A stretch of 64,000 nt of DNA, taken from assembly GCF_028641065.1 (NCBI RefSeq), contig NC_073396.1:3100001-3164000 (forward strand), read 5' to 3'. The translations under genes were made by a program, and so were the position numbers. Shown here one piece after another: positions 1 through 28,630 of the stretch. The stretch comes from Leucoraja erinacea. Its lineage: Eukaryota. Numbering within the stretch: position 1 is the stretch's first letter; each line of letters begins with the position of its first letter. The notes under the pieces are model-generated. The model saw only the letters and a list, made by a program, of their open reading frames with translations, did no database searches and had not been told where the DNA came from.

Positions 1-920
1 TCCCACTAGTGGAAACATCCTCCCCACATCTGATCATCCACTGATTGTGGATGGTCAGCCATGATCCCTTTGAATGGTGGTGCTGGCTCGAAGGGCCGAA
101 TGGCCTACTCCTGCACCTATTGTCTAACTGAATGAGGGGATTACCCAGACTTGCTGCTCCACAATCCACGCCTATGATAGGAATATTGCTTTGGTTGTGA
201 AGGTCGGTGACTTCAGGAGTAGAGCCCAAAGATTTGGACTAACTCAGTGGCTCGGAGGTCATGGATAGGTGACGTTTCGGGTTGGGACCACTCTTCAGAC
301 TCCGAATCAGAAGTTCAGACTCAGAGTGACAGTATTTATCTCAAATGTGGAATCTCAGATAACTATGAAGTTTGATCTCCATCTAGACTGCTTTCTCACA
401 TCATAGGAAATTGGATGCTAATTGAAGCAAATATTTCTCTAGGTTTTCTTTGACTATGAACATTAATTGCCTCGTCTGCCATTGTAAATCATCTTACCAG
501 CAGATTCATTACAGATGCATAAAGGTTGGAGGAAATAATGAATCATTAACATTAGTGCCAGTGGGTGGTTTAGGGTTCAGTTTAGTGGTGTCATCTTCAA
601 ACTTGCAGATGGAGTTAGAGCTGAACTTGACCCCACAGTCGTGAGTGTAGAGGGAGTATATTAATCCTTGGGATAAAAATATTCAATGGGTATTTTTGCC
701 CACACACTAACAATTACATTTTATTTTAATTTATTCTGATCAGATACTTTTATATTAGTTTAGTTTAGAGATACAGCATGGAAACAGATCCTTCAGCCCA
801 CGGAGTTTACGCCGACCATCGATCACCAGTTCGTACTAGTTCTATGTTATCTCACTTTCTCATCCACTCCCTACACACTAGGGGCAATATACAGAGGGGC
901 AATTTACAGAGGGGCAATTT

Positions 921-1624
921 GCTCCCTTATACATCAAAGGAGACAAGGTGGAGAGAGTCAACGACTTTAAGTTCCTGGGAATAAACATCTCCCAGGACCT
1001 CAAATGGCAAATGAACACCATCACTCTCGTGAAGATGTCTCATCAGCGGCTGTATTTCCTGAGGTCTCTACGGAGAGCTAACGTCTCACAGCCGCTGCTG
1101 CTGTCCTTCTATCGATGCGCCGTGGAAAGTATCCTCACCTATGGAATCCTGGTGTGGTTTGCCAGCTGTACTGTGGCTGAGAGGAGGGCGCTGCAGGGAA
1201 TTATAAAAACTGCGCAGCGCATTACAAACGCTAACCTGCCCTCCTTGGATGACATATACAAGGCCCGATGCTTGCGCAGGGCCATAAATATCAAGAAGGA
1301 CACATCCCACCCTGCCAACCACCTTTTTACTCTGCTACCCTCCGGGAGGCGATTCAGGTCTCTCTGCAGGCTCGCACTGGTAGACTAAAAAATAGTTTCT
1401 ACCATTGTGCGATAAAAGAGCTTAACTCCAATAGTGAATACTGGGAAGCAAGAAGTAACTTAGAGAAATACCGCTAAATTATTTTAAACTCTTTTAAATA
1501 TGTATTTATATTTTACTATTAACTGTACATATGTGCATTGGTGTTGTGTTGTATTAACGGAGGAGAAGTAAATGGAATTTCGTTGCTCAGTTTTGTGCAA
1601 TGACAATAAACATACTCTATTCTA
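921..1624 (+). mobile_element. Rex1/Babar-type LINE, 3' fragment (RT C-terminal region)
   Basis: ORF 948-1388 has FKFLGI..DLKW, QRLYFLRSL, FYRCAVESILTYGILVWF and SHPANHLFTLLPSGRRFRSL, typical of Rex1/Babar ORF ends. The 3' end reads tgacaataaa followed by a short repeat. Confidence 0.85.
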
Positions 1625-1882
1625 AATGAGAAAATCATTTTTCACACAGATAGTGGTGAATCTGTGGAATTCTCGGCTACAGAAGTTAGTTGAGGCCAGT
1701 TCATTGGCTATATTTTAGAGGGAGTTAGATGTGGCCCTTGTGGCTAAAGGGATCAGGGGATATGGAGAGAAGTCAGGTATGGGATACTGAGTTGGATGAT
1801 CAGCCATGATCATATTGAATGGCGGTGCAGGCTCGAAGGGCCAAATGGCCTACTCCTGCACCTATTTTCTATGTTTCTATGT
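1625..1882 (+). mobile_element. CR1 LINE 3' end
   Basis: RVVNLWNS-type coding tail plus the 3' UTR shared with the long copy at 10671-11922, ending in (TTCTATGT)n. Confidence 0.85.
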
Positions 1883-2957
1883 AACCTACAACCTTGCACG
1901 TCTTTGGGATGTGGGAGGAAACCAGGGCAGCAAGAGGTCACCATGCGGTCACAGGGAAAGCATGCAAACTCCACACAGACAGCACCCGAGGTCAGGATCG
2001 AACCTGGGTCTCTGGCGCTGCGAGGCAGCAACTCTACCCGCTGTGCTACTGTGCTCTCTGATCAACGATCAATATTTACATTAACTCTTCTGCCTAAATG
2101 AAAATTCATTCTTTGTGTGTCCAATTTATATGCTAGCATCAGATATATTTCACCAGTAACGAAAAAGCCGATGAAGCCATAAATGATGAAGGGCATAAAA
2201 AAAAGTCAGAATGTTTCTGTCAGCAGAAATTATAATTAAACAGATAGGACATCAAAAGACACAAGGTGTACCATGACTGCAAGGCAGAGAGCAAAGTCAG
2301 CAGCTTCATCTCAAACATCCACAACATCATCATATAATCATTGAGATTAGAAATGCTGTTAGGAACCTGCATGATACGTGCATTTATATAGACATTCATG
2401 ACAGGAGTGGCAGCTGGACACACAAACCAGGATGATTGGTGTCCCAAAACACTCCAATCTGGTTTCTCAAGACAGGTGGATGTTTTTAATGGCGATTTTT
2501 TTTTCAGTTACTGTAAATTTACCTGGTGCCACATCATGAGCAGTGTGTATGATAAACAACATTAGGAGACACGGATTTTGAATTGCCCTTTAACCGAACA
2601 CTGACATTTACGAGAAGCGTAAGAACAAGGAACTGCAGGTAACTCAGCAGGTCAGGCAGCATTTCTAGAGAAGGTGACGCTTCGGTATAGGTGAGCTTTG
2701 GGTAGGACCCTTCTCCAGTCTGAAGAAGGTGCAGACACAAAATGGTGTATCTGTTCTGGCATTAGAGGGGAAGGTTGCCCTGTAGAACTCATTGCAGTAT
2801 CTTAAAATAAAATATATTGAGAGGACTAATATGCAGCTAGTATGCCATCCTATATCAGATTAATTTCTCACCCAATCTGGGTTCACATTTAAGTCAAGGC
2901 TATTAACTTCTTTGCTTCAAAAATAAGGTAACAGCAGGTAATGCAGCATCTCTTTTT

Positions 2958-4415
2958 TTAGTTTAGTTTACAGATACAGGCCCTTCGGCCCACCGGGTCC
3001 GCGCCAACCAGCAATCTGAGCGCATTAACACTATCCTGCCCCCACTAGGGACAATCTTTACATTTACCAAACCAATTAACCTATAAACCTGTACGACTTT
3101 AGAGTGTGGGAGGAAACCGAAGATCTCGGAGAAAGTCCACGCAGGTCACGAGCCCAAGGCCGTCTTAACACGTGGGCACGCTGGGCAGTTGCCCGGGGCC
3201 CACCACGAGCCTAGGGGACCCATGCTGATCTATGTATGTTGTGACATGCTGTCAATAAATAAATACTGAATTGCAAGAACGGATTCATCAACTGAATGAG
3301 TTTGCCATCCATGTGCCTTGTGCTGGACACCGCCTAAACTTAACATAGAAACATAGAAAATAGGCGTAGGAGAAGGCCATTCGGCCATTCGAGCCAGCAC
3401 CGCCATTCATTGTGATCATGGCTGATCGTCCCCAACTTGGTGGGTGTAAAAGTGGCAGAGTGTTGTCTACAGACTCTAAAATCCTTTGACTTGGCTCAGT
3501 GTCCGTATTCGTTTTTCTCTGATTCTACACATCGATGGAATGTTCCGGCATCATCTTTAGGAAATAAATGTTGTGGCCAAGCGTCTCAGTCTGACACGAG
3601 ATGGCCGTCACATTTTGATGCCGTTCGTGCTCTGTACGGGGGTTTGGAGAAAATTAAACATGCACTGGATTCTGTATCAGCTGACACTGAACAGGAAGTG
3701 AACACAAGGGGAGAGGCAGGAGGACTGAGCGAAAAAACGGAGAACCTGGAACGATCTTCCTCACAATTCTTTGGAATGACATCCTTGAAAGAGTGAACTA
3801 AACAAGCAAGGTACAGCAGTCAAGAGGATGTGAACATACTTGTTGCCATGAATCTTCTTGAGTCTCTGAAAACCTACCTTCAGGAAATTAGAGACAAATT
3901 TAGTGAATACGAATTGAAAGCCGGGAGTAGGTGTCCAGATTCAGATTATAGCGATGTGAAGAAACGGGAACGAAAGCTAAGTGTGCGTCTTACTAGATAT
4001 GACGGATCAGAAGAGGAGGATCAAAATAATTTCGGGCAACTTGAAATCTAATCTCATTAGTTTCCTAACGTTTAAATTGCACTCAGTGTTCACGTGTATG
4101 ATGGTGACTAACTGTGCAGGACAACGTTCATTTTCAAGACTGAAACTTATAGAAAATCAGCTTGGCAGCACAATGGGGCAGCAGCGTTTGAACTGGCTTT
4201 AATTTTATCGACCATTTACATTTTTATTCCAGCGAGTGGTTGTGTAGGTAGGGGCCCCAGTGCACTGCTTTGCCCAGGGGCCTATTATGCTGATAAGACG
4301 GCCCTGCACGAGGCGAACGTGCAAACTCCGTACAGACAGCACCCGTAGTCAGGATCGAACCCGGGTCTCTGGCGCTGCATTTGCTGTCAGGCGGCAACTC
4401 TACCGCTGTGCCACC
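2958..4415 (-). mobile_element. HE1-type SINE interrupted by a hAT transposon
   Basis: SINE 3' part at 2958-3154 and 5' part at 4307-4415 are collinear across the hAT insertion. Confidence 0.75.
3155..4306 (+). mobile_element. Internally deleted, degenerate hAT DNA transposon (Tip100-like termini)
   Basis: TIRs CAAGGCCGTCTTA and TAAGACGGCCCTG. 8-bp TSD cacgagcc (3147-3154) / cacgaggc (4307-4314). Frameshifted transposase pieces: FFSDSTHRW, SDTRW and the hATC-like motif VTNCAGQRSFSRLKLIENQLGSTMGQQRLNWL. Contains a CR1 3' stub at about 3342-3436. Confidence 0.85.
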
Positions 4416-5380
4416 GTGACCGTTCTCTCTGGAGAACATGGACAGGAGACTTCAGGTTGAGACCCCCTTCTTTAAGCATCATTAGCAGCTCGTTCCACAT
4501 ACCCAGCACTCTCTGAGTGGAAACGTTGCCCCTCAGTTTCCTATTCAGACCGAAGATCGAAACATCGCCTCTCCACCTTCTCCAGAGATGCTACCTGACC
4601 CGGAGAAACTCCAGCATTTTGTGTTTTTTTAATACTGACATTTTCAGATTCCATATATTAATATTTACAACTTTTATCACAATGAGCAAATCAATCTCGT
4701 TGCAAAATTGATACAACCGACAGTGCGCAATTAAATTTGCCAACTTGAATTCAGCATCAGGTGAAAAAAATATTTATTTTGCATCAGATGGACAGACCGA
4801 CCCAGTGTGGCAATGGACCATTACGTCCGCACCTTCACACTAGATCCTAGCAACACAGAACTAAAGTGGCAGCAGATTGCAAAGATAAACATTTTAGGCT
4901 ACTCGAAGATCTGATAACAGGGATCCTGTATTTATTTTCCTTTGTGAACAAGTTTGACCAATTAGTTCTGTTGACATCATAGAACGAGGCAAAGAAGAGA
5001 AATCCATTCCAACCGCCGCACCCATACCAACTCTTCCAAAGAACAGCCCTACGGCACTCACCCCTCTGTTCAAGGGACTGAACATATTTATCTTGCAATG
5101 TTTATCCTACTCCCCTTTAAAACTGATCGCTCACTCTGCTCTCTTTGAAACAATTCATCCCAGACCACAAAACACTGACATAACACAGCTAAAGGAATTG
5201 CGGGATATAGGGAGAAAGCAGGAACGGGGTACTGATTTTGGATGATCAACCATGATCATATTGAATGACCTACTCCTGTGCCTATTTTCCTATGTTTCTA
5301 GTAGGTGAATCAAGGACCACAGGACACAGGTTTAAGGTGAAGGGGAAAAGATTTAATAGGAATCTGAGGGGTAAGATAGT

Positions 5381-5598
5381 CCAAACCCGTCCTATCCATG
5401 CACCTATCTAACTGTTTCTTAAACTTTGGGATAGTCCCAGCCTCAACTACCTCCTCTGGTAGCTTGTTCCTTACACCCGCATTTTCACACAAAGGGTGGT
5501 GGGTGTATGGAACAAGCTACCAGAGGAGGTAGTTGAGGCTGGGACTATCCCAAAGTTTAAGAAACAGTTAGATAGGTGCATGGATAGGACAGGTTTGG
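5381..5598. repeat. 98-bp inverted duplication with a 22-nt spacer inside a CR1-like fragment
   Basis: 5381-5478 is the reverse complement of 5501-5598 with about 2 mismatches. Confidence 0.9.
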
Positions 5599-6235
5599 TG
5601 GGATTTGGACCAAAGGTGGGCAGGTGGGACAATGTGGCCAGTGTGGACAAGTTGGGCCGAAGGGCTTGTCATACAGCATTGAAACAGGCCCTTTGGCCCA
5701 ACTCGTCCATGCCGACCAAGATGACCTATCTAAGCTTTGCCCGCGTTTGGCCCATATCCGACTAATCCTTGTACATGTCCAAATGTCTTTTAAATGTTAT
5801 ATTACCTGCCTCAACTCCCTCCTCAGCCAGCTCCTTACCAAAAGTAAAACACAAAGTGCCAAAATGGGATCGACATAGGCCGAAGCATTACCTCTTCAAA
5901 TAGACACAGAGAAAAGAGCAGGGACTTGAACACGGCCAAGCTGAGAACTATCAAAAAACCTTAAAACCTATCAAAAAGAGTCACAGGGATGCATGGTTGA
6001 TGGATCGTGTAAGAGGGAACTGCTGATGCTGGTTTACACTGAAGATAGACATAAAATGCTCAAGAAAAGGAATAGGTCAAGATTCTGGTCGAGGCCTTTC
6101 TTCAGCAGTCTGAAGAAGGGTCTCGACCCGAAATATCACCCATTCCTTTTTTCCATAGTTGCTGCCTGACCCGCTGAGTTACTCCAGCACTTTGTGTCTA
6201 TATTTGGTTCATGGATAGGAAAGATTTGGAGTTCC

Positions 6236-6612
6236 TACTTACAAAATTGTTAAGGGGTTGGACAGGCTAGATGCAGGAAGATTGTTCCCGATGTTGGGGA
6301 AGTCCAGGACAAGGGATCACAACTTAAGGATAAGGGGGAAATCCTGTAAAACCGAGATGAGAAGAACTTTTTCACACAGAGAGTGGTGAATCTCTGGAAC
6401 TCTCTGCCACAGAGGGTAGTTGAGGCCAGTTCATTGGCTATATTTAAGAGGGAGTTAGATGTGGCCCTTGTGGCTAAGGGGATCAGGGGGTATGGAGAGA
6501 AGGCAGGTACGGGATACGGAGTTGGATGATCAGCCATGATCATATTGAATGGCGGTGCAGGCTCGAAGGGCCGAATGGCCTACTCCTGCACCTAATTTCT
6601 ATGTTTCTATGT
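6236..6612 (+). mobile_element. CR1 LINE 3' fragment
   Basis: KGLDRLDAGRLFPMLGKSRTR coding tail plus CR1 3' UTR with TTCTATGT tail. Confidence 0.85.
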
Positions 6613-6619
6613 TTTCCTA

Positions 6620-6950
6620 CACAGGAAGGAACTACAGATGCTGGTTTAAACCAAAGAGAGACACACAAAAGGTTGGAGTAACTCAGCAGGACATCAGCAT
6701 CTCTGGAGAGAAGGAAAGGGTGACGTTTCGGGTCGAGACCCTTCTTCAGACTAAAAGTCACGGGAAAGGGAAACGAGAGATATAGACGATGATGTAGAGA
6801 GATAAAGAACAATGAATGAAAGATATGCAAAAAATGTAACAATGATAAAGGAAACAGGCCATTGATAGCCGTTTGTTGGGTGAAAACAAGAAGCCGGTGT
6901 GACTTGGATGGGAGAGGGATAGAGAGAGAAGGAATGCTAGGGTTACTGAC
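6620..6950 (-). mobile_element. Penelope-like element 3' end with minimal hammerhead core
   Basis: Reverse complement of 6721-6752 reads agt CTGAAGA agggtc tc gaccc GAAA cgtca. The same module directly follows a GIY-YIG ORF end at 44237-44670. Confidence 0.7.
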
Positions 6951-7069
6951 GTGTATGAACTTTGTGGAGATAAATACAACCAACGCACACACGTCAAACC
7001 TTAATTAGTCATTAGTTTCAACCAGGTGGGCTCTGGTCCTGTTAATAACGAGTTAGGTGCTGGACAAGT

Positions 7070-7930
7070 TCAAAGTCAAGTTTATTGTCATAAGCACAAG
7101 TGCGCTGAGCTAGTTACCAGGAAAACCTTGCTTGCTGCAGACAGCTAGACACAAACACACAAAAACAAATCACACGTCAATTATACAAAATATACTTCAA
7201 ATTCTAAAAGATTATACAAAAAAAAGACATCAAGTTTAAAAATATTCTTAGAAAATAAAGCAAATCCATGGCAGTGCAAGAGATGAGACGGTGTTCTGTT
7301 GTCAAGTTACAACTGGGTTTGTGCAGATTGGTGCAAGAACAGGATCATTGTCAGAAAGTAGCTGATTCTGAAGCTGGTGTTGTGGGACTTCAGGTTTCTG
7401 TACCTCCTGCCCGACAGTAGCAGTGAGAGGACGGTTCGGTCCAGATGGAGGGGATCTTTGATGGTAGATGCCTCCTCCTTGAGCCAGTGTCTGGTGCAGA
7501 TGCTTTCGATGGTGTGGAGGGCTGTGCCCATGATGGAGTGGGCTGAGTGCACCACTCTCTGCAGCCTTGTGCGTTGAAGTTGCCGCACTAGGCCATGTTG
7601 CAAACGATGCAGAGCATCTGTAGACGTTTATTAGAGTATTCAACAATAAATGGTTCCATTTGTAACTAACCTCTTTAAACTTTTAAGAAAGTTAGGCGCT
7701 AAAGTTTCTTCATCATGATTACATCGATATGCTTGGCCCAGGTCAGCCGGGATGTTAACACCAAGGAGCCTGAAGCTGCTAACTCTGTCCTCCATTCACC
7801 CACCAATGAAAACTGCCATTTGGTTTCCTAACATCACTTTTTGAAGTTAACAATTAGTTCCTTCGTTTTATTGACATTGAGGAGAGATTCTTGAGGCAAC
7901 GCTCACTATCTCTCTCCGGTACGCTCACTC
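7070..7930 (-). mobile_element. Degenerate Rex1/Babar-type LINE fragment
   Basis: ORF 7307-7603 (RLQRVVHSAHSIMG..LHTIESI..KDPLH..LLLSGRRYRNLK) matches the same region as 948-1388. The tail has ttgaac-type repeats. Confidence 0.7.
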
Positions 7931-10670
7931 ATTGCTTCCAATGATAGACGTTGAGAGAGGCTGGAGTTTGGTGTTGTGCCATTTGATTACTTGGAAGAAG
8001 CCTGGCGATCACGGCTTTCAGGCTCCTGTACCGTCTTCCCAAAGGCAATAGCGAGACGCGAGGGGGTCCTTGATGGTGCTGGACACCCTTTCGAGGCTGC
8101 GCCTCCTATAGATCCCTTCAACGGTCAGTTGTCCACCACTCTCTGCAGCCTCCTTCGTACCTGGGCATTCGAGTTATCGAACCAAGGCCATGATGCAACC
8201 GGTCAACAAGCTAATCAAGTCAAGTCAATTCAAATATATTCGTTACGTACACATATGAGATGTGCAGTAAAATGAAAAGTGGCAATGCTCGCGAATTGTG
8301 CAAAAAAAACAAACAAACTACAAACAGACTATAATCATCAGCCGGACCGAGAGAGTGGCAGGAAAGGAAATCCTGTAAACTCGATCAGAAATCCACAGCA
8401 ACTTGTTACTAAAGGCACAAGCAGTTTGTGTAACACACTGGTTTACTGAATCAAAGCAAGCAACGTTGATGAGTTGTACCTTTGGCACCATCTTCTGGCA
8501 AACTGAAGAAAATGTCAAAAAGCAACCATGCCGGAACGAGAAACCAACAAGCTATCCAAGTGTAGACACAAAATGCTGGAGTAACTCAATGGGTGAAGCA
8601 TGACTCTCACCCGCTGAGTTACTCCAGCATTTTGTGTCTACCTTCGATTTTACCAGCATCTGCAGTTCTTCCATGCACAAGCTGTTCCACCATTCACTGC
8701 ACCTCAGTACATACGACCATAAACTAAACTCAAAACTCTCTAAAATCATGGCTGATCTATCTTATCCTCTCAACCCCATTCTCCTGAATTCTCCCCATAA
8801 CTTTTGATGCTCTTATTAATCAAGAACATATTAATCTCCACTTTAAAAATACCCAATGAGTTGGCCTCCTAAGTGGTCTGTGGCAATGAATTTCGCAGAT
8901 TCACCACCCTCTGGCTAAAAAAAAAAAAAACAAACTCCTCCTCATCTCCTTTCTAAAGGTAAATCCTTTCATTCTGAGGCCTTGTGCCCTCTGGTTTTAG
9001 ACTCTCCCACTAGTGGAAACCTCCTCCCCACATCCACTCTATCCAGGTGTAATCACATGCAGACACACTGAGGTGCAGGGACAATGAAGGTCTTGTTTGT
9101 AGCAGCATCACAATCACAGACTTAGCCAAACACACAGAGAACTTAAATTACACATAAGCTCTACAAGAAAATGAAAGGAAAGATGATGGTGCAAGAAAAA
9201 GTCTGTGTAAAACAAAAACCATTAGCGCAAGGCACGACCTCCGGCTCTACGACCACGTTTTAACCCGGATGCTCTCACCGTATCCCTTCATTATCACCTC
9301 TTCCACAGCCAACAATGGACCATTGTGGGCTCCAACTTTCCTGGGTGATTGGGTGCCGGCTCTGATTTGTTCTGTACCTTTTCATACTTCTAGTTTCCCC
9401 TCTCTCTTGACTCTCAGTCTGAAGAAGGGTCTCGACCCAAAACGTCATCTATTCTTTTCTCCAGAAATTCTGCCTGACCCATATAGAACCTGGCTCGGAC
9501 AAAACTCTCATTATTAATAACCCATTATCTGTTATTTGCACTTTATCAGTTTATTTATTCATGTGTGTATATATTTATATTATGGTATATGGACACACTT
9601 ATCTGTCTTGTAGTAAATGCCTACTATGTTCTGTGTGCTAAAGGAAAGCAAGAATTTCATTGTCCTATACAGGGACACATGACAATAAACACACTTGAAC
9701 TTGAACTTGAGTTATTCCAGCATTTTGTGTCTATCTTCCGTGCAAACCAGAATCTGCAGTTCCCTCCCACACATTTCAACAACCTGATAGATGTAGGAAA
9801 GAAGCTGTTCTCGGGCCTGATGATGTGCGACTTCAGGCTTCTATACCAGATGGTAGATGATAGATGCTGCCTTATTGAGACAGCGTCTCATGTGGAAGCT
9901 TTCAGAGGGCCATGCCCGTGGCGGATCTGGCCGACGTGATATTTTCGATTTACGATGGGTTTATCATAATGTAACCACATCGTAGGGCGAGGAGCAGCTG
10001 TATAGTCTTTCCGCTGACTGGTTAGTACGCAACAAAAAGCCTTTCGCTGTACCTCGGTACACGCGACAATAAACTGAAATATAATTTTTTAACAGCTTTG
10101 AAGCTAAAGGATACAAGATGGCGAATATAGTCACAAAATGTTGGAGTAACTCAGTGGGACAGGCAGCTTCTCTGGAGAGAAGGAATGAGTGACGTTTCGG
10201 GTTGAGCAGGTACAAGTTGACACCGGAAATGTGTCGATTCTTGTGTACTGCCTCAGCGATATCTATTCTTCTTACACACTCTTGTACTTAAGTAAGATTT
10301 TACGTGTGTACAGAAAGATTTTTCCTGAATTGTATGCAATTCATTGTATGAATTTCACTGTACCATGTGGCAGTCTGAAGAAGGGTCTCGACCTGAAACG
10401 TCACCCATTCATTCCCTCCAGAGATGCTGCTTGTGCTGCTGAGTTTCTTCCAGCATTTTGTGCCTCTCTCTTAGGCGACACAAATGGCTGGTTCCATCTC
10501 ACCCAGGGTCAGGCAGAACACTGCAGGGTGGAAGGAAGAAGAGTCCCGACCCGAAACATAAGCTGTCTGTTCTCTCCACAGATGCTGCCTGACCCACTGA
10601 GTTCCTCCAGTACTTTGTGTTTTGCTCACACTCACAGTTCCTGTCCCTAAGACACATAAAGTGCTGGAGT

Positions 10671-11922
10671 AACATAGAAACATAGAAATTAGGTGTAGGA
10701 GTAGGCCATTCGGCCCTTCGAGCCTGCACCGCCATTCAATATGATCATGGCTGATCATCCAACTCAGTATCCCGTAACTGCCTTCTCTCCATACCCCCTG
10801 ATCCCCTTAGCCACAAGGGCCACATCTAACTCCCTCTTAAATATAGCCAATGAACTGGCCTCAACTACCCTCTGTGGCAGAGAGTTCCAGAGATTCACCA
10901 CTCTCTGCGTGGAAAAAAAAGTTCTTCTCATCTCGGTTTTAAAGGATTTCCCCTTTATCCTTAAGCTGTGACCCCTTGTCCTGGACTTCCCTAACATCGG
11001 GAACAATCTTCCTGCATCTAGCCTGTCCAACCCCTTAAGAATTTTGTAAGTTTCTATAAGATCCCCTCTCAATCTTCTAAATTCTAGAGAGTATAAACCA
11101 AGTCTATCCAGTCTTTCTTCATAAGACAGTCCTGACATCCCAGGAATCAGTCTGGTGAACCGTCTCTGCACTCCCTCTATGGCAATAATGTCCTTCCTCA
11201 GATTTGGAGACCAAAACTGTACGCAATACTCCAGGTGTGGTCTCACCAAGACCCTGTACAACTGCAGTAGAACCTCTCTGCTCCTATACTCAAATCCTTT
11301 TGCAATGAAAGCTAACATACCATTCGCTTTCTTTACTGCCTGCTGCACCTGCATGCCTACCTTCAATGACTGGTGTACCATGACACCCAGGTCTCGCTGC
11401 ATCTCCCCCTTTCCCAATCGGCCACCATTTAGATAATAGTCTGCTTTCCTGTTTTTGCCACCAAAATGAATAACCTCACATTTATCCACATTATACTGCA
11501 TCTGCCAAACATTTGCCCACTCACCCAGCCTATCCAAGTCACCCTGCAGTCTCCTAGCATCCTCCTCACAGCTAACACTGCCCCCCAGCTTAGTGTCATC
11601 CGCAAACTTGGAAATATTGCCTTCAATTCCCTCATCCAGATCATTAATATATATTGTAAATAGCTGGGGTCCCAGTACTGAGCCTTGGGGTACCCCACTA
11701 GTCACTGCCTGCCATTGTGAAAAGGACCCGTTTACTCCTACTCTTTGCTTCCTGTTTGCCAGCCAGTTCTCTATCCACATCAATACTGAACCCCCAATGC
11801 CTTGTGCTTTAAGTTTGTATACTAATTTCTTATGTGGAACCTTGTCGAAAGCCTTCTGGAAGTCCAGATACACCACATCCACTGGTTCTCCCCTATCCAC
11901 GCTACTAGTTACATCCTCGAAA
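10671..11922 (-). mobile_element. 5'-truncated CR1 LINE with uninterrupted reverse-transcriptase C-terminal frame
   Basis: ORF 10764-11951 has VDVVYLDFQKAFDKV, GVPQGSVLGP, KFADDTKL, ERDLGV-like, VRPHLEYCVQFWSP and RVVNLWNSLP. The 3' UTR ends in (TTCTATGT)n. It is inserted into a Penelope-derived repeat. Confidence 0.95.
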
Positions 11923-12822
11923 ACATCCTGGAATAGCGGGTCAGGCAGCATCTCTGGAGAAAATGGATGGGTGATGTTTCAGGTTGAGGCCGGTCTTCTG
12001 AAGAGGGGTCTCTTTCCTCTAGAGATGCTGCCTGACCCGCTGAGTTATTCCAGGACTTTGTGTATCTTTGTCATAAACAAGCATCTACAGTTCTTTGTTT
12101 CTATGTACATATTGATCCTGTCCCTGTGTACACTACACTCTGCCATAGACTTTGCTGCAAGTTTCAAAACTCGGTGAGTGAATGCTTACAATGATCACTT
12201 CCGAGTCAATAAAGTTTTAAATTTCAGATTAATCTGAACACGAAACGGGAATGAGACAGATTACACAAACTCCCCAGGTATACAGAAGCCCTGCACAGAA
12301 CATGTTCTCCAGAGATGTTGCCTGGCCCGCTCCATTACTCCGGCACTTTGCCTCTTTTCTTTTCACAGAATCCCCGACGTTACAGAACACTTTAAAGACC
12401 CTTTGTGAAGTACGAAATAAATGCTCGCTCTTTAGCTTCCAGAGCTCCGTGAAATAAACAGCACGTGTTTCTATTAATGGTAAATGCAAGCCAGATAGCT
12501 GATCAGCAGCGATTCTGTTTAGTTTCTTGTCACTTGCCTGTGATCTTGTCCTTTTCTTTCTCTTCTGCCGGGTCGTATCAGGCTTCTCAGGTGCTGGCTG
12601 CGGGTCGTCAGTGGACAGTTTCACCTTGCGGGTTGCAAGTTTACTTTTCTTCTCTTTGGTCATCTTGTGGAATAACGAATGGATACGACTGGTGTTTGTT
12701 TGAAAGTTTCTTTTAAGTAAACCAGCCCGAGAGAGAGAGAGATATATAGTCAGTTAATTAGTTAGTTATTGACTGTACACAGAAGTTAAAGGGCTGCATC
12801 TGATGTTTGGACTACTTGTTAC

Positions 12823-12856
12823 CAAAGATCCTATAGCTCGCTAGACAGGATCTTTG
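12823..12856. mobile_element. 34-bp TIR-only remnant (probable excision footprint) with perfect 8-bp TSD
   Basis: cttgttac (12815-12822) | caaagatcctatagc-tcgctagacaggatctttg | cttgttac (12857-12864). Its ends match the TIRs of the element at 13986-14447. Confidence 0.85.
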
Positions 12857-13668
12857 CTTGTTACTGCAGCAAGCTGCCTCTCCACGTGGGACACATGAGT
12901 CCACCAGCCCAGCCTCCTTGCCCCGACCTGATCCGCAGGCAAACTTTCATTGGGTCGCCTCCCTGCCTGTCCGTCCCCGGACCTTTGGCTACAAGTTTAC
13001 GGCACCACGTTGGGTTGGAGTCTGGAGTCAGGAGGCAAGGAGTGTGGAATTATGCGAGGGCCAATATATAAATATTGGGATGTGCAGGAAGAGACTGCAG
13101 ATGCTGGTTGAAAGCAAAAATGCTGGAGAATGTGAGATTAGGGAAGGGATCTTCACTGAGTGTGGGATTTGTTTAAGAAGGAACTGCAGATGTTGGAAAA
13201 TCTAAAGTGCTGGAGAAACTCAGCGGGTGCAGCAGCATCTATGGAGCGAAGGAAATAGGCAACGTTTCAGAAAGTTCAGTCTGAAGAAGGGTTTCGGGAC
13301 GAAACGTCGCCTATTTCCTTCGCTCCATAGATGCTGCTGCACCCGCTGAGTTTCTCCAGCACTTTTGTCCACCTGAGTGCGGGATTGTGGAAGGTTTGGA
13401 AGGGAATTTCACAGCGTGTGTGTGTGATTATGGAAGGGAATAGACTCGATGGGCCGAATGGCCTAATACTTACTCCTAGAATTTGTGAATGTGGGATTAT
13501 GGAAGGCGGGTTTCACTGAGTGAAGGTTATGACAAACACTAAGGGAGTATCTTTGGTTTTATGGAAGATATTTGCAATGGAGGTGAAGGGAGAGAGTTGA
13601 TGTACCTTGGCTGCCAGCAACACATCCGGTCCGGTAGGGCGCCGGTCACATGCCATGGGGGGGGACTC

Positions 13669-13985
13669 GGCGCTGCCCCCGTCACGTGGTGATGCTGGCG
13701 GTCACGGCGCTGCCCCCGTCACGTGGTGCGGGCGGCGTTCACCAAAGATCTTATAGCGTTCATGGTACCCCTGTCACGTGGTGGTGCTGGAAGTCACGGC
13801 GCTACCCCCGTCACGTGGTGGTGCTGGAAGTCACGGCGCTGCCCCCGTCACGTGGTGCTACTGGCGGTCACGGCCAAAGATCCTATAGCAGAGCTCCGCG
13901 GCGTTCACGGCGCTACCCCCGTCACGTGGTGGTGCTGGTAGTCACGGCGCTGCCCCCGTCACGTGGTGGTGCTGCTGGCAGTCAC
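13669..13985. repeat. 37-bp GC-rich minisatellite with GTCACGTGG in each unit
   Basis: GTCACGTGG at 13681, 13718, 13773, 13810, 13847, 13921 and 13958 (spacings 37, 55, 37, 37, 74, 37). The array resumes at 14448 after the MITE. Confidence 0.9.
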
Positions 13986-14447
13986 CAAAGATCTTATAGC
14001 GAAGCAAGATAGGCTGCTCCTGCTGAATGCAATGGACTGACGTGTAGCACGCTATGGAGGGGGGTCATGGGCATTTTCCACGCCCATTTTAGCAACCTGA
14101 TCCTCCCGACCCGACTCGCAATGTAATCTTATAGCAGAGTTATAGGATCTTAGGTGTAATTTTGTTAGTTCTCACCTCTGTTAATTCTTGTCACGAATAA
14201 AATTTGACTCGGGTAATAGTGTTCTTTCTAATGTTTTTAACATGTTTTCTTTTTAAATGGTTCATAGGCTGTGTTTGAGCAGATTTTGTGCAAACCGGAA
14301 CATAGCCGGCCCGACTGGACTCGCAGGGTAATCAACGTTGCGGGGAAGTTTTCGTGTGTGACATAGGGTTAGATTCTTAATTATGTTAGTTCATAATTCT
14401 CTTAATTCTTGGTAAAGAAAAAAGTTTTCTTCGCTCTAAGATCTTTG
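13986..14447. mobile_element. 462-bp non-autonomous DNA transposon (MITE), P or hAT superfamily
   Basis: 18-bp TIRs caaagatcttatagcgaa / ttcgctctaagatctttg (1 mismatch). Perfect 8-bp TSD gcagtcac (13978-13985, 14448-14455). AT-rich interior inside a CpG island. Confidence 0.85.
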
Positions 14448-14480
14448 GCAGTCACGGCGCTGCCCCCATCACGTGGTGGC

Positions 14481-14675
14481 GGCGGCGTTGGTTCACGGCA
14501 CCCCACGTCACGTGGCGCCTTACTTCCGGCGGCGTTGGTTCACGGCACCCCACGTCACGTGGCGCCTTACTTCCGGCGGCGTTGGTTCACGGCACCCCAC
14601 GTCACGTGGCGCCTTACTTCCGGCGGCGTTGGTTCACGGCACCCCACGTCACGTGGCGCCTTACTTCCGGCGGCG
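14481..14675. repeat. Four perfect 47-bp tandem repeats with E-box and ETS motifs (SMCR8 proximal promoter)
   Basis: Unit ggcggcgttggttcacggcaccccacgtcacgtggcgccttacttcc at 14481, 14528, 14575 and 14622. Each has GTCACGTGG, and ACTTCCGG spans each junction. Confidence 0.95.
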
Positions 14676-14711
14676 GGGGTCAGTCAGCTGGAGGGAGGGA
14701 GACAAGACAAG

Positions 14712-14816
14712 ATGGCGGCTGGCGAGGAGCAGCCAGTGTCGCCGAGCTGTTGCTGCCCGCCTTCCCCGGGCGGCGGCGACCACGACCACGACCACGGTGA
14801 GGACGAGCCGCGATGA
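14712..14816 (+). promoter_or_regulatory. Upstream ORF (34 aa) whose stop overlaps the SMCR8 start; YY1-type motif AAGATGGCGGC at its start
   Basis: aagATGg strong Kozak context at 14712. The frame ends CGA-TGA (14814-14816), overlapping the ATG at 14813-14815. The TSS is unknown. Confidence 0.55.
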
Positions 14817-17202
14817 TCACCGCCCCCGACGTAGTGGCCCTGGCCCGCCAGGAGGACGGGGAAGGGGAGAGGGGGGAGGAGGAAGAGCGGCCGGCGCCTC
14901 CCTTCCACTTCCAGCCCCACAACCCCTGGGCCGGGGCCGCCGCCGCCACCGCCACTTTGCTGAAGGATTTCATTCTCATTTCCGAGTTTTCCGAGCAGGT
15001 AGGCCCTCAGCCGTTGCTAACCATCCCGGACCATGCCCGCGGCGACTTTGACCTCAACTATTTCTCTCTCAGGATCATGTCTGTGGATTACCAGGCCTCG
15101 TTCGTGGGCCACCCTCCCGGCACCAGCTACCCCAAGCTCAACTTCGTGGAGGACTCCAAGGTGGTGCTCGGCGACTCCAAGGAAGGAGCCTTCGCCTACG
15201 TCCACCACCTGACCCTCTACGACCTGGAAGCCAGGGGCTTCGTCCGCCCTTTCTGCGTCGCCTACATCTCCACGGATGAGAACAAGATCATGCAGCAGTT
15301 CCAGGAGCTCTCGGATGACTTCTCCAGAGCCTCCGAGTGCCTGAAGACCGGCAACAGAAAAGCGTTTGCCAACGAGCTGGAAAAGAAACTTCAGGACCTG
15401 GAGTATACCCGGAATGTGCTGCACAATGAAACAGAAATCCAGAAAAAGTCAAACGATAAAGGATATTACTCTTCGGTTGCGATAGAGAAGGCGAATGAAC
15501 TCGCCAATGTGGAGAAATGTATAATCGAGCATCAAGATCTCCTGATGCAGATCAGAAATTATTCATACAAAAAAACGAGGGATGCCAGCTATTTTACACA
15601 CGAGCCAGATAATGGTACGGAACATTCTGAGTCTGGGTTGGAGGAAATGCAAAATAGGGGCGAGTCGTCTGAAAAAAATAGTTTATCCGATGGAAGATCT
15701 TACATACCTAAATTTACAAAAACTAAATCTGCAAAATGCTTTGAAAAGAAACTGAAAACCCTGGAAGAACTTTGTGACAGCTACTTTTTTAATCAAACCT
15801 TAGAACAACTTAGGCAGGTGGAGAAATTCTTCAGGGGGGATGTATGCTATCTCCTTACCAGTCAAATTGAAAAGGTGCTCCTGCAACAACAACGGACAAC
15901 TTATTTTCTCTTTGAAGACTCGCTACTCTTCACTGATGAAGAACAAGCTGAAAAAGAACAGCACTGTGAAAAACCCCTACCTTGTTTTAATCTTATCAAT
16001 GCTAAAGTTTTGGACCACCCTTGTCTATCAACTGAAGCGGCAAGCTGTGATTCGTACAAGTCTTGCGTGGAGTCTGTATCCATTAAACTGGATCCTCAAA
16101 TTAGCGTAGACAGTTATTGTGGGTCTATGTCTGATTCCGTTCCATTCAAAAGTCTCTTTGGAACTTCGGACTATCTTGAATTGGAAGGGAAAGAGAAAGG
16201 AAGTATTAGTAGTGGTGAAAGCATTGAGGTCCTGCGTACAGAAAAATCCTCCTCGACCCCAATATCATCCAAATCTGACAACCAGACAGACACGCAGCGC
16301 CAGCATCTGCACGTTGTGCAGCGGAAGTTTGTTGGTACTAGGAGGGCGAACAGCGAGGACAGCATTGAGGTACTAAGTACCACTGAATCACTGATACCCG
16401 AAGACCTGAAAGCCGCCTATCCAAATGCAATCCATGAAGAAGAAGCACCTTTAGAAAATGAAACAATTGGGCTGAGCACAGATCTTGTGGAGCCTGATGC
16501 AAATCTAAACCATACTAATGGGTTTAGCAACACAAATTTTGAAACTGGAACCATTAATTTCTCTGCGTTATCTGAGCCCGTTGACCCTTCTTGTTGTATT
16601 GGGAAAGAGAGCCCACATTTTAATAAGTCTGTACCTACATTTGTAACCGAAGAGTACAGGGATGGGGTTGTCAATGTTCCACCACAGCGCAGCAAAACCA
16701 TCAGTCACCTATTCCACAGTGATTACCCACTGCAAGAAGGGGGAGGTGGATCGGATAATGCTGCAGATCAAGTATTCTCTCCCTGTGAAAAGGAATACAG
16801 TGATCTACCCGGTGCTGAAGAAATGGCTCGGCTTCCAGTGGATGAGTATTTGGACAACATGAGCTACATAAGTGCATCTTTATATTCTGATCGGACTCCA
16901 TCTCCAGCCCTCCCAACCAGTCCGTCAAAGAGGCTCTCTGAAAGACGCAAGAAGCATTCGGGGAAGAATTCTCTGTGGTTTATACGGCAATATTCTTTTG
17001 CACAGCAGGCAATATTTTCACTGCTGTCTGGGCGGACCCTTGTGGTGGTTGGTGAGCACGAAGGGAAAGTCAAGAAGCTTGTCAATGCCTTGTCAATATT
17101 TGTCCCCAGTCATGGCAGAGGTGCAGATTCTGTGAAGCAATGGGTAACGCTTCCTTTGCACGTGGATGACTTGCAGACTTGGAAACTCATTGGACTTCAG
17201 AG
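14813..17202 (+). CDS. SMCR8: SMCR8 (C9orf72-complex subunit, DENN/longin family), coding exon 1
   Basis: MITAPDVVA..DFILISEFSEQVGPQPLLTIP..FDLNYFSLRIMSVDYQASFVGHPPG..DLEARGFVRPF matches recalled vertebrate SMCR8. Donor AG|gtgggt after LIGLQR (phase 2). Confidence 0.97.
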
Positions 17203-20587: not shown

Positions 20588-21041
20588 AATAGCTTCTCCT
20601 CTGGGCACCAGTATGCTGCACTCGCTGAATCGCTATAGACGCTATGTCACCATTCTGGACTGCGACAACAAAACGCTGCATTGCCCGCAGTATAAAGGAC
20701 AGCTGATTACCCGAATGGCCGACCATAGGACTCAGATAAAGAGGGGCAGCACTTACTACATGCACGTTCACAGTATGCTGACCCAGCTCAGTTCCCAAGC
20801 TTTCCTCTACACCTTCTGCCATCACCTGCATCTTCCCATCGACGAGAGGGAGAGCGAAGATTCAGTCACCTGTCGCAGAGTAAACTTTTTAAAGCATCAT
20901 CTGGGGCTGGTGAATGATGACAGCAAAATAGTGCAATACTTTGCAGAACTGATCAAGATGCACTACCTGCACGAACCTCCAAAGGGCTTGAATCCGCTTC
21001 TGCGGTTTCACTACGACCCTAGTGTGGTGTTTAAGATCTAA
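20588..21041 (+). CDS. SMCR8: SMCR8 coding exon 2 (total 947 aa)
   Basis: Acceptor ttctttcacttttctag|A. IASPLGTSMLHSLNRY..ADHRTQIKRGSTYY..FLYTFCHHLHLP..LRFHYDPSVVFKI* is in frame with exon 1. Confidence 0.97.
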
Positions 21042-27957: not shown

Positions 27958-28533
27958 GCATTATGGAAGCTGTAGTCCCCTGCCCGGTGCCGCCAATGCC
28001 ACCCACTGTACATCAGACTACATTCCCCATGAGGCTTTGAAATAAAGTTGAAACACCAGTCGAGGTACCTGCGTCTCGGGCGTTGCATTCTGGGAATTGT
28101 AGTCCCCATTATCGGTGCCGCCCAGGTTATCTACCGGTAATTGGACTACATCGCCCATCAGGCTGTGCGACGGTGACGCACGCGTTGCATTGTGGGAAGT
28201 GCTGCCTCTGCCGAACACCGTGCACCGGATTGACCATCAGACTGTGCGCCGATGACGCTGGCGTTGCATGGTGGGAGTTGTAGGCCCAATGTGAGCAGCC
28301 ACTTATCGCGTGACTACATCGTCCATCAGGCCGTGCGGCGGCGCCAGTGACGCAGGTGTTGCAGTGACGCAGTGACGCAGCCGCCAACGCCGCTGACCGA
28401 GGTGGAGACTGCATCGCCCATGAGGCCTTGCGGAGGCGCCAAGGACGCTGGCGGTGCATTGTGGGAGGTGTAGTCCACCGCCCGTAGCCAGCAGCGCCCT
28501 CCACCGGGCAAGAGACTACATCTCCCATGAGGC
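27958..28533. promoter_or_regulatory. Cluster of about 10 ZNF143/THAP11-type (ACTACAnnTCCCAnnATGC-like) motifs in the TMEM11 CpG-island promoter
   Basis: Minus-strand sites at 27958, 28085 (ACTACAATTCCCAGAATGC), 28187, 28266 and 28456. More degenerate plus-strand sites at 28017, 28145, 28313, 28408 and 28515. Confidence 0.75.
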
Positions 28534-28630
28534 AGCGCGGCGGCGCCCGGCCCAGGAGGGGGGGGGGGGGGGGTTGGGGGGGGAGGGGGACGAGCGGAGA
28601 GAAAAATTCCTGCCCTGGATGCCCGGCAAG

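Follow-up and report, generated by a model that had tools for sequence, protein, structure and literature searches.

A tandem E-box array interrupted by a putative P-like element upstream of SMCR8 in a skate

For TYMS, the number of 28-bp units in a variable number tandem repeat (VNTR) of the 5′ UTR is held to set the number of USF E-boxes (PMC4184792). The CLEAR element is given as GTCACGTGAC (PMC11864625), and the best site for MITF is reported to be TCACGTGA, with peak height dropping as sites depart from it; MITF also takes a 5′ T and/or a 3′ A, and double sites are bound more than additively (PMC7427332). The sequence GTCACGTG is described under most USF2 peaks, TFE3 and MITF sharing the motif and TFEB competing (PMC11436898). 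Among transposons, P transposase is reported to cut 17 bp inside the inverted repeat, to generate 8-bp target duplications and to prefer promoters (PMC7776569), while Galileo and 1360, of the same superfamily, are described with duplications of 7 bp rather than 8 (PMC3698922, PMC4168063); in hAT transposition, the element is released whole and the cut flanks end in hairpins (PMC5499845). Promoters assembled from repeats and P elements that seek out promoters are both familiar; at the skate locus described here, within a 64-kb window (the whole stretch of DNA that was analysed), a repeat-built promoter and a putative P-like element are stacked together in one vertebrate.

The SMCR8 gene and the architecture of the E-box array

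The gene downstream of the array is SMCR8, as the first-pass annotation had named it: the product matches the human chain in PDB 6lt0 over residues 1-796 with an E value of 7.7e-229. The first coding exon lies at 14813..17202 on the plus strand and the second exon ends at 21041. In its variable part, the protein is nearest, among named relatives, to that of Rhinoraja longicauda (85%), followed by Pristis (77%) and sharks (63-71%), which makes the host a skate. A 947-aa product on a 3,291-bp contig of a near-identical skate (P0001) starts at the SMCR8 ATG and joins both exons, suggesting a spliced transcript in the same or a very close species. The gene order over 14813-52400 is SMCR8 (+), TMEM11 (+), and a short-chain dehydrogenase (-), the last presumably DHRS7B. 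On the other side (1-13600), no host gene, including a divergent partner, was detected in the 89 of 154 frames that were searched, which gave only two retroelement-type Pfam matches in a scan that short exons would escape. Human SMCR8 is arranged head to head with TOP3A, and such an arrangement is not evident in the window within the reach of the same scan.

A CpG-rich island extends over 13250..15500, with observed/expected ratios of 0.78-1.13 versus 0.51 for the window. Over the array and the element inserted in it, the ratio is 0.89-1.33 versus 0.45-0.55 around them, and this retention of CpG is as would be expected for an unmethylated promoter. Between the array and the gene, AAGATGGCGG (14709..14718, plus strand), which we take to be a YY1-like motif, contains an ATG that opens an upstream frame; AAGATGGCGG occurs just once more in the window, over the start of TMEM11. 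The upstream frame (14712-14816, 34 codons) has a strong context and a TGA that overlaps the SMCR8 ATG (ATGA), and it is relevant only if transcription begins upstream of 14712.

TCACGTG occurs 12 times in about 1 kb (13682, 13719, 13774, 13811, 13848, 13922, 13959, 14469, 14508, 14555, 14602, and 14649), as the first-pass annotation had counted, with the sites spanning 13682-14655; shuffles of 13669-14675 contained 0.21 on average and at most 4 (500 shuffles). Across the whole window, 19 occurrences compare with 4.45 expected and with a maximum of 11 among 100 shuffles. These nulls indicate that the sites are copies, and selection is not implied by them. The previously noted grouping into seven distal sites, one at 14469, and four in 47-bp repeats agrees with the site list; the distal seven are 854-1131 bp from the SMCR8 ATG and the proximal five are 164-344 bp before it.

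The distal array (13664..13985, plus strand) comprises seven 37-bp units, each carrying GTCACGTGGT, and is interrupted by two element relics. The earlier description of a 37-bp array thus holds for the seven E-box units, while the repeat itself is imperfect, with 74% matches and E-box spacings of 37, 55, 37, 37, 74, and 37. Four identical 47-mers follow at 14480..14675 (plus strand; 4.2 copies, 100% identical), each containing TTCACGGC, CCACGTCA (TGACGTGG on the minus strand), GTCACGTGGC, and ACTTCCGG, and each with the reported ACGTCA overlapping the E-box in addition to the ETS-type ACTTCCGG. From the end of the last one to the ATG (14813) there are 138 bp, close to the approximately 140 bp first given. 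All four occurrences of ACTTCCGG in the window are inside the 47-mers, and tandem expansion multiplied E-boxes throughout and ETS sites in the last four units, in accord with the first-pass annotation. The minus-strand TGACGTGG of each 47-mer (14503-14651; four versus 0.04 expected locally), which we assume to be of the UPRE/XBP1-CREB3 type, is absent from the 37-mers.

An eighth 37-type unit (ATCACGTGGT) at 14448..14491 on the plus strand bridges the 37-mers and 47-mers, which had been taken for two separate minisatellites and are instead built from one unit, in one array split by a transposon. In the unit alignment, the 47-mer differs from the 37-mer by a C-to-A change that creates CCACGTCA, by a 2-bp deletion, and by an approximately 8-bp ETS-bearing difference. 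Once the element and one copy of its target duplication are subtracted, the E-box spacings run 37, 55, 37, 37, 74, 37, 40, 39, 47, 47, 47. A decayed 13th unit precedes the others (13627..13663, plus strand), its E-box reading GTCACATG at 13645-13652. The tandem unit TCACGGC...CCCCGTCACGTGG is therefore present in about 13 head-to-tail copies near a gene start, the arrangement expected of a promoter VNTR. Before unit 6, the sequence at 13888-13911 is similar to that end of the 47-mer in which the ETS site lies, so that the ETS-bearing form may be the ancestral one. Repeat lengths of 37 and 47 bp correspond to about 3.5 and 4.5 helical turns, which would place adjacent E-boxes on opposite faces, maybe by chance.

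The perfect identity of the 47-mers bounds their divergence below about 2%, which accords with the recent expansion proposed at first and dates it no more tightly. It would also be the mark of an assembly artefact, a reading that is very improbable: elsewhere in the array the units have diverged and are nested with target duplications, which shows tandem copying at this locus to be real, and the 47-mer block is only 196 bp long.

Special secondary structure in the units was considered and rejected, since they fold no better than shuffles (z of -0.53 and +1.30). No Rfam match to an RNA gene was found in the array; a hairpin at 13109-13355 accounts for all six sub-threshold matches. At 13204-13365, arms of 65 bp that are 98% complementary represent two opposed copies of a common repeat, with sub-threshold matches to microRNA families.

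Element insertions and relics in the array

The 510-bp gap between the distal and proximal E-box groups is a transposon insertion. The inserted element (13986..14447) is a 462-bp non-coding sequence of MITE type, putatively P-like, with terminal inverted repeats (TIRs) matching at 18/19 bp, a start of CAAAGATC, a terminus sequence of CAAAGATCYTATAGCG, and a perfect 8-bp target duplication, GCAGTCAC, at 13978-13985 and 14448-14455. It has a GC content of 41% and is the only full copy in the 64 kb. Four relics of its ends were recognized. A 13-bp relic of the left end (13743..13755, plus strand) lies between GCGTTCAC and GCGTTCAT, a 7/8 duplication, and lengthens the E-box spacing from 37 to 55. 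A one-ended relic at 13875..13903 (plus strand), with about 19 bp of element end flanked by GTCACGGC and TTCACGGC, replaces the E-box of one unit; these two relics, which derive from one and the same end of the element, account for the spacings of 55 and 74. A palindromic end-like relic is nested in the 462-bp element itself (14125..14153), and a two-ended relic of 34 bp with a perfect 8-bp duplication, CTTGTTAC, is located upstream at 12823..12856.

The sequences at 12823, 13743, and 13986 each have a different matched duplication (8/8, 7/8, and 8/8), indicating separate insertions, while the 13875 relic and the 13986 end occupy matching positions in a duplicated block of 111 bp, so that the relic perhaps reflects no independent insertion. 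As can be shown from the sequence, two or more insertions of the element into the array hit the corresponding TCAC^GGC site and one more lies 0.85 kb upstream, and the copy that remains pushed seven E-boxes 470 bp farther from the gene. All six terminus matches in the window (at most two mismatches) fall within 12823-14447, and none was found elsewhere in the 64 kb at this threshold, the TMEM11 island included; the probability that three uniformly placed events would fall within 1163 bp is about 1e-3, a post hoc figure.

The concentration of three relics or insertions inside 320 bp of the array raises the alternative that the transposon drove its growth, with breaks left by P-like excision being repaired by copying of neighbouring units and the modules thereby multiplied. 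The 111-bp block ends exactly at the element end in both copies, the 47-mers begin 33 bp from the right end of the element, and P donor breaks are reported to be mended by recombination or end joining (PMC7776569), all of which would fit. However, the insertions interrupt units, so that several units came first; element ends are absent from the TMEM11 array; and the 13875 relic and the 13986 end differ at several bases. Growth by this route is accordingly regarded as decidedly unlikely.

With respect to class, the TIRs and the duplications (8/8, 8/8, and 7/8) are as found in the P superfamily, and the 8-bp target duplication is equally that of a hAT MITE. Since the P cut is staggered by 17 nt, up to 17 nt per end would be expected to stay at the donor, and 17 + 17 gives 34 bp, the length of the 12823 relic, a size to which internal deletion also gives similar products. 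A literature search for P scars that retain the element ends found no relevant paper, so that the 17-bp offset of the cut is the basis on which such scars are deduced.

When metagenome contigs were searched for the 16-bp element terminus, at least 119 loci were returned. Among the matches listed, two-ended relics, 30-51 bp long and in many cases (37-51 bp) longer than 34 bp, lie between 16 distinct pairs of flanks. These flanks agree over 7 bp at an identity of 0.68, compared with 0.31 when pairs are mismatched and 0.22-0.25 when other lengths are taken; one pair is a perfect 7-mer and six agree at 6/7, some being versions of one site. Of the 122 oriented matches among those listed, 96 have no partner end and many are inside microbial genes, and these were set aside as chance. 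Palindromic non-skate relics with near 7-bp duplications include L003, L005, L007, L010, L022, L034, L035, L038, and L042, with further such loci at L062, L096, L103, L111, L113, L114, L115, L116, and L118; L037 contains a 296-bp copy carrying both element ends. No homology to the element interior was found among the at least 119 loci, which share only the terminus with the window and thus point to another host. A terminus common to the skate and another host could reflect either an old family or horizontal transfer.

Judged from its ends alone, the element is probably P-superfamily-like, given the 34-bp relic, the 7-bp duplications of the metagenome loci, and the whole-element release of hAT transposons. 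A hAT-family MITE, with relics that are internal deletions and not excision scars, is possible but rather doubtful. It would fit the duplication length of 8 bp and target sites like those of Hermes (GTGNNCAC) and hobo (GTTTAAAC) (PMC2577343), and also that no transposase was seen in the 89 of 154 frames searched upstream of SMCR8; against it, end-only scars are not a normal product of an element that is freed whole (PMC5499845), and among the metagenome matches listed the terminus occurs with 7-bp duplications. A literature search for a skate hAT element or MITE, or for a skate P element or THAP9, found no paper in the collection searched.

Candidate factors, constraint, and the neighbouring TMEM11 promoter

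None of the 12 sites reads GTCACGTGAC or TCACGTGA, and the 3′ A is absent from all of them, so that the E-boxes are not full CLEAR elements. As CLEAR-like sites, the term used for them at first, the four in the 47-mers stand up best, matching the 10-mer at 9/10, while seven match at 8/10 and one at 7/10. The 5′ T is present in all 12, and 11 of the 12 carry the USF2-type E-box GTCACGTG. Because USF2 and MiT/TFE proteins bind one motif and compete for it, sequence cannot separate them, and the assignments of USF, ETS/GABP, and YY1 to this promoter are putative, made by motif likeness. Five of the 12, candidate proximal-promoter sites of this autophagy/lysosome gene, lie 164-344 bp before the SMCR8 ATG.

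The first-pass annotation had proposed that the array may be a copy-number-tunable and possibly polymorphic TFEB/USF response element; in its strongest form, a TFEB/TFE3 (CLEAR) element selected to couple SMCR8 to lysosomal signalling, this is unlikely. In its favor are the 9/10 matches to GTCACGTGAC, the consistent 5′ T, the tolerance of MITF for such flanks together with its super-additive binding of double sites (PMC7427332), the reported action of SMCR8 in autophagy and lysosome control, and the finding in human that a repeat's chance of influencing expression is doubled when it lies within 100 bp of a start site (PMC8024321). On the other hand, full sites number zero of 12, and MITF peaks are reported to shrink away from TCACGTGA (PMC7427332); Smcr8 is not named in the text or in five supplements of PMC11436898; and expression-associated repeats make up 6.1% of the 2672 human genic repeats tested in PMC8024321. 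The TMEM11 promoter, moreover, is similar in building style. Nothing shows the SMCR8 array to be a dedicated TFEB switch.

TMEM11, identified by its Pfam family and non-lysosomal by that family, has an island in which a repeated module (27958-28533) carries 10 sites resembling ACTACANNTCCCA, with five to each strand; at most 1 was found in 200 shuffles, the pattern being fitted partly to the TMEM11 sequence. The ACTACANNTCCCA-type motif is described as the THAP11/ZNF143 SBS2 site (PMC3627581). TGACG-type sites lie between the SBS2-like ones, and a YY1-like motif is located at 28628. Both CpG promoters in the 64 kb are therefore motif arrays, two promoters being no survey. The construction of the TMEM11 promoter in like manner from another motif argues against an adaptation specific to SMCR8, and its island without element ends means that promoter targeting is seen at one of two promoters.

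Constraint on the E-boxes was assessed in units 1-8, where the nine E-box columns contain one derived state versus 14 in the other 28 columns (p = 0.089), a comparison that is biased because the units were located partly by their E-box. A p value of 0.038, obtained by adding the decayed unit, was discarded because the alignment was gapped through the decayed site. The older units thus give a weak hint of E-box column constraint. The non-significance of this test is consistent with neutral growth, in which only the last unit, with its E-box, ETS, and YY1-like sites, would matter and the rest would have arisen by slippage, the CpG island tolerating them; the array did withstand the 462-bp insertion, the replacement of one E-box by a relic, and the decay of another. 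Yet all eight retained older units keep the E-box CpG, with three C-to-T type changes at other CpG columns, and E-box and ETS sites, which the amplified unit combines, occur together in one of 3000 single-unit shuffles, the motifs having been chosen post hoc. Neutral growth is a possibility of some weight, though on balance it is not favored.

The reading to which slightly more than half of the confidence is assigned is that the SMCR8 locus is a constitutive CpG-island promoter in which a module of E-box, ETS, and YY1-like sites was amplified in tandem. The sequence shows one unit copied head to tail about 13 times and a non-autonomous cut-and-paste element inserted among the copies, one copy of the element staying and the others reduced to end-only scars; the fourfold copying of an ETS-bearing variant unit beside SMCR8 would have come later. 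The P-like element may have encountered a promoter that was open, unmethylated, and rich in matching target sites. The proximal part, with five E-boxes, four ETS sites, and one YY1-like site, would drive broad constitutive expression through USF-type and GABP/ETS factors, and TFEB/TFE3 may share the E-boxes as sub-optimal sites. Factor occupancy is probably raised or buffered by the extra units, which would act as modest amplifiers or be carried along as passengers and are not expected to form a purpose-built nutrient switch.

A far broader conjecture is that skate housekeeping promoters are widely tandem arrays of modules that a promoter-seeking P-like family, whose ends recur in a distant animal, repeatedly enters and leaves, break repair altering E-box and ETS number and spacing and thereby strength or TFEB responsiveness. 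This is a highly speculative extension; if the TMEM11 array does reflect a genome-wide habit in skates, it would be the larger result.

Comparison with described systems

From the stacked promoter one can read how an array of motifs grows and is re-spaced, and the series of one to four identical E-box + ETS units is a natural one for copy-number effects and for competition between USF and TFEB. In common with the described CLEAR and USF2 systems, skate SMCR8 has the GTCACGTG core in several copies in the promoter of an autophagy/lysosome gene (PMC11864625, PMC11436898, PMC7427332); its sites differ from CLEAR in that the 3′ A is absent throughout and the best match is 9/10. As in TYMS, tandem units near the gene start multiply USF-type E-boxes. 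In contrast, TYMS has two to three units, a shown polymorphism, and a reported effect on expression (PMC4184792), whereas the skate array is known from one sequence and has 12-13 units of two lengths, ETS sites in four of them, and a transposon inside. Human eVNTRs likewise include promoter-proximal minisatellites possibly carrying factor sites, but they are defined by length variation together with a link to expression (PMC8024321), while the skate array is a single sequence.

With Drosophila P, Galileo, 1360, BuT5, and zebrafish Pdre, the skate element has in common CA...TG ends and short inverted repeats (PMC7776569, PMC3698922, PMC4168063, PMC10983969). Duplications of 7 or 8 bp and insertion into promoters are likewise reported for non-autonomous elements of the P superfamily; the terminus, however, is unlike that of Pdre2 (CATACCTGTCAAC), and the host is a skate. 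The closest parallel for repeated entry of one family into one proximal promoter is provided by the P hot spots in Drosophila heat-shock promoters (PMC1592238). Those hot spots consist of insertions segregating across populations, whereas the skate locus holds several old events stacked in the tandem motif array of one vertebrate allele.
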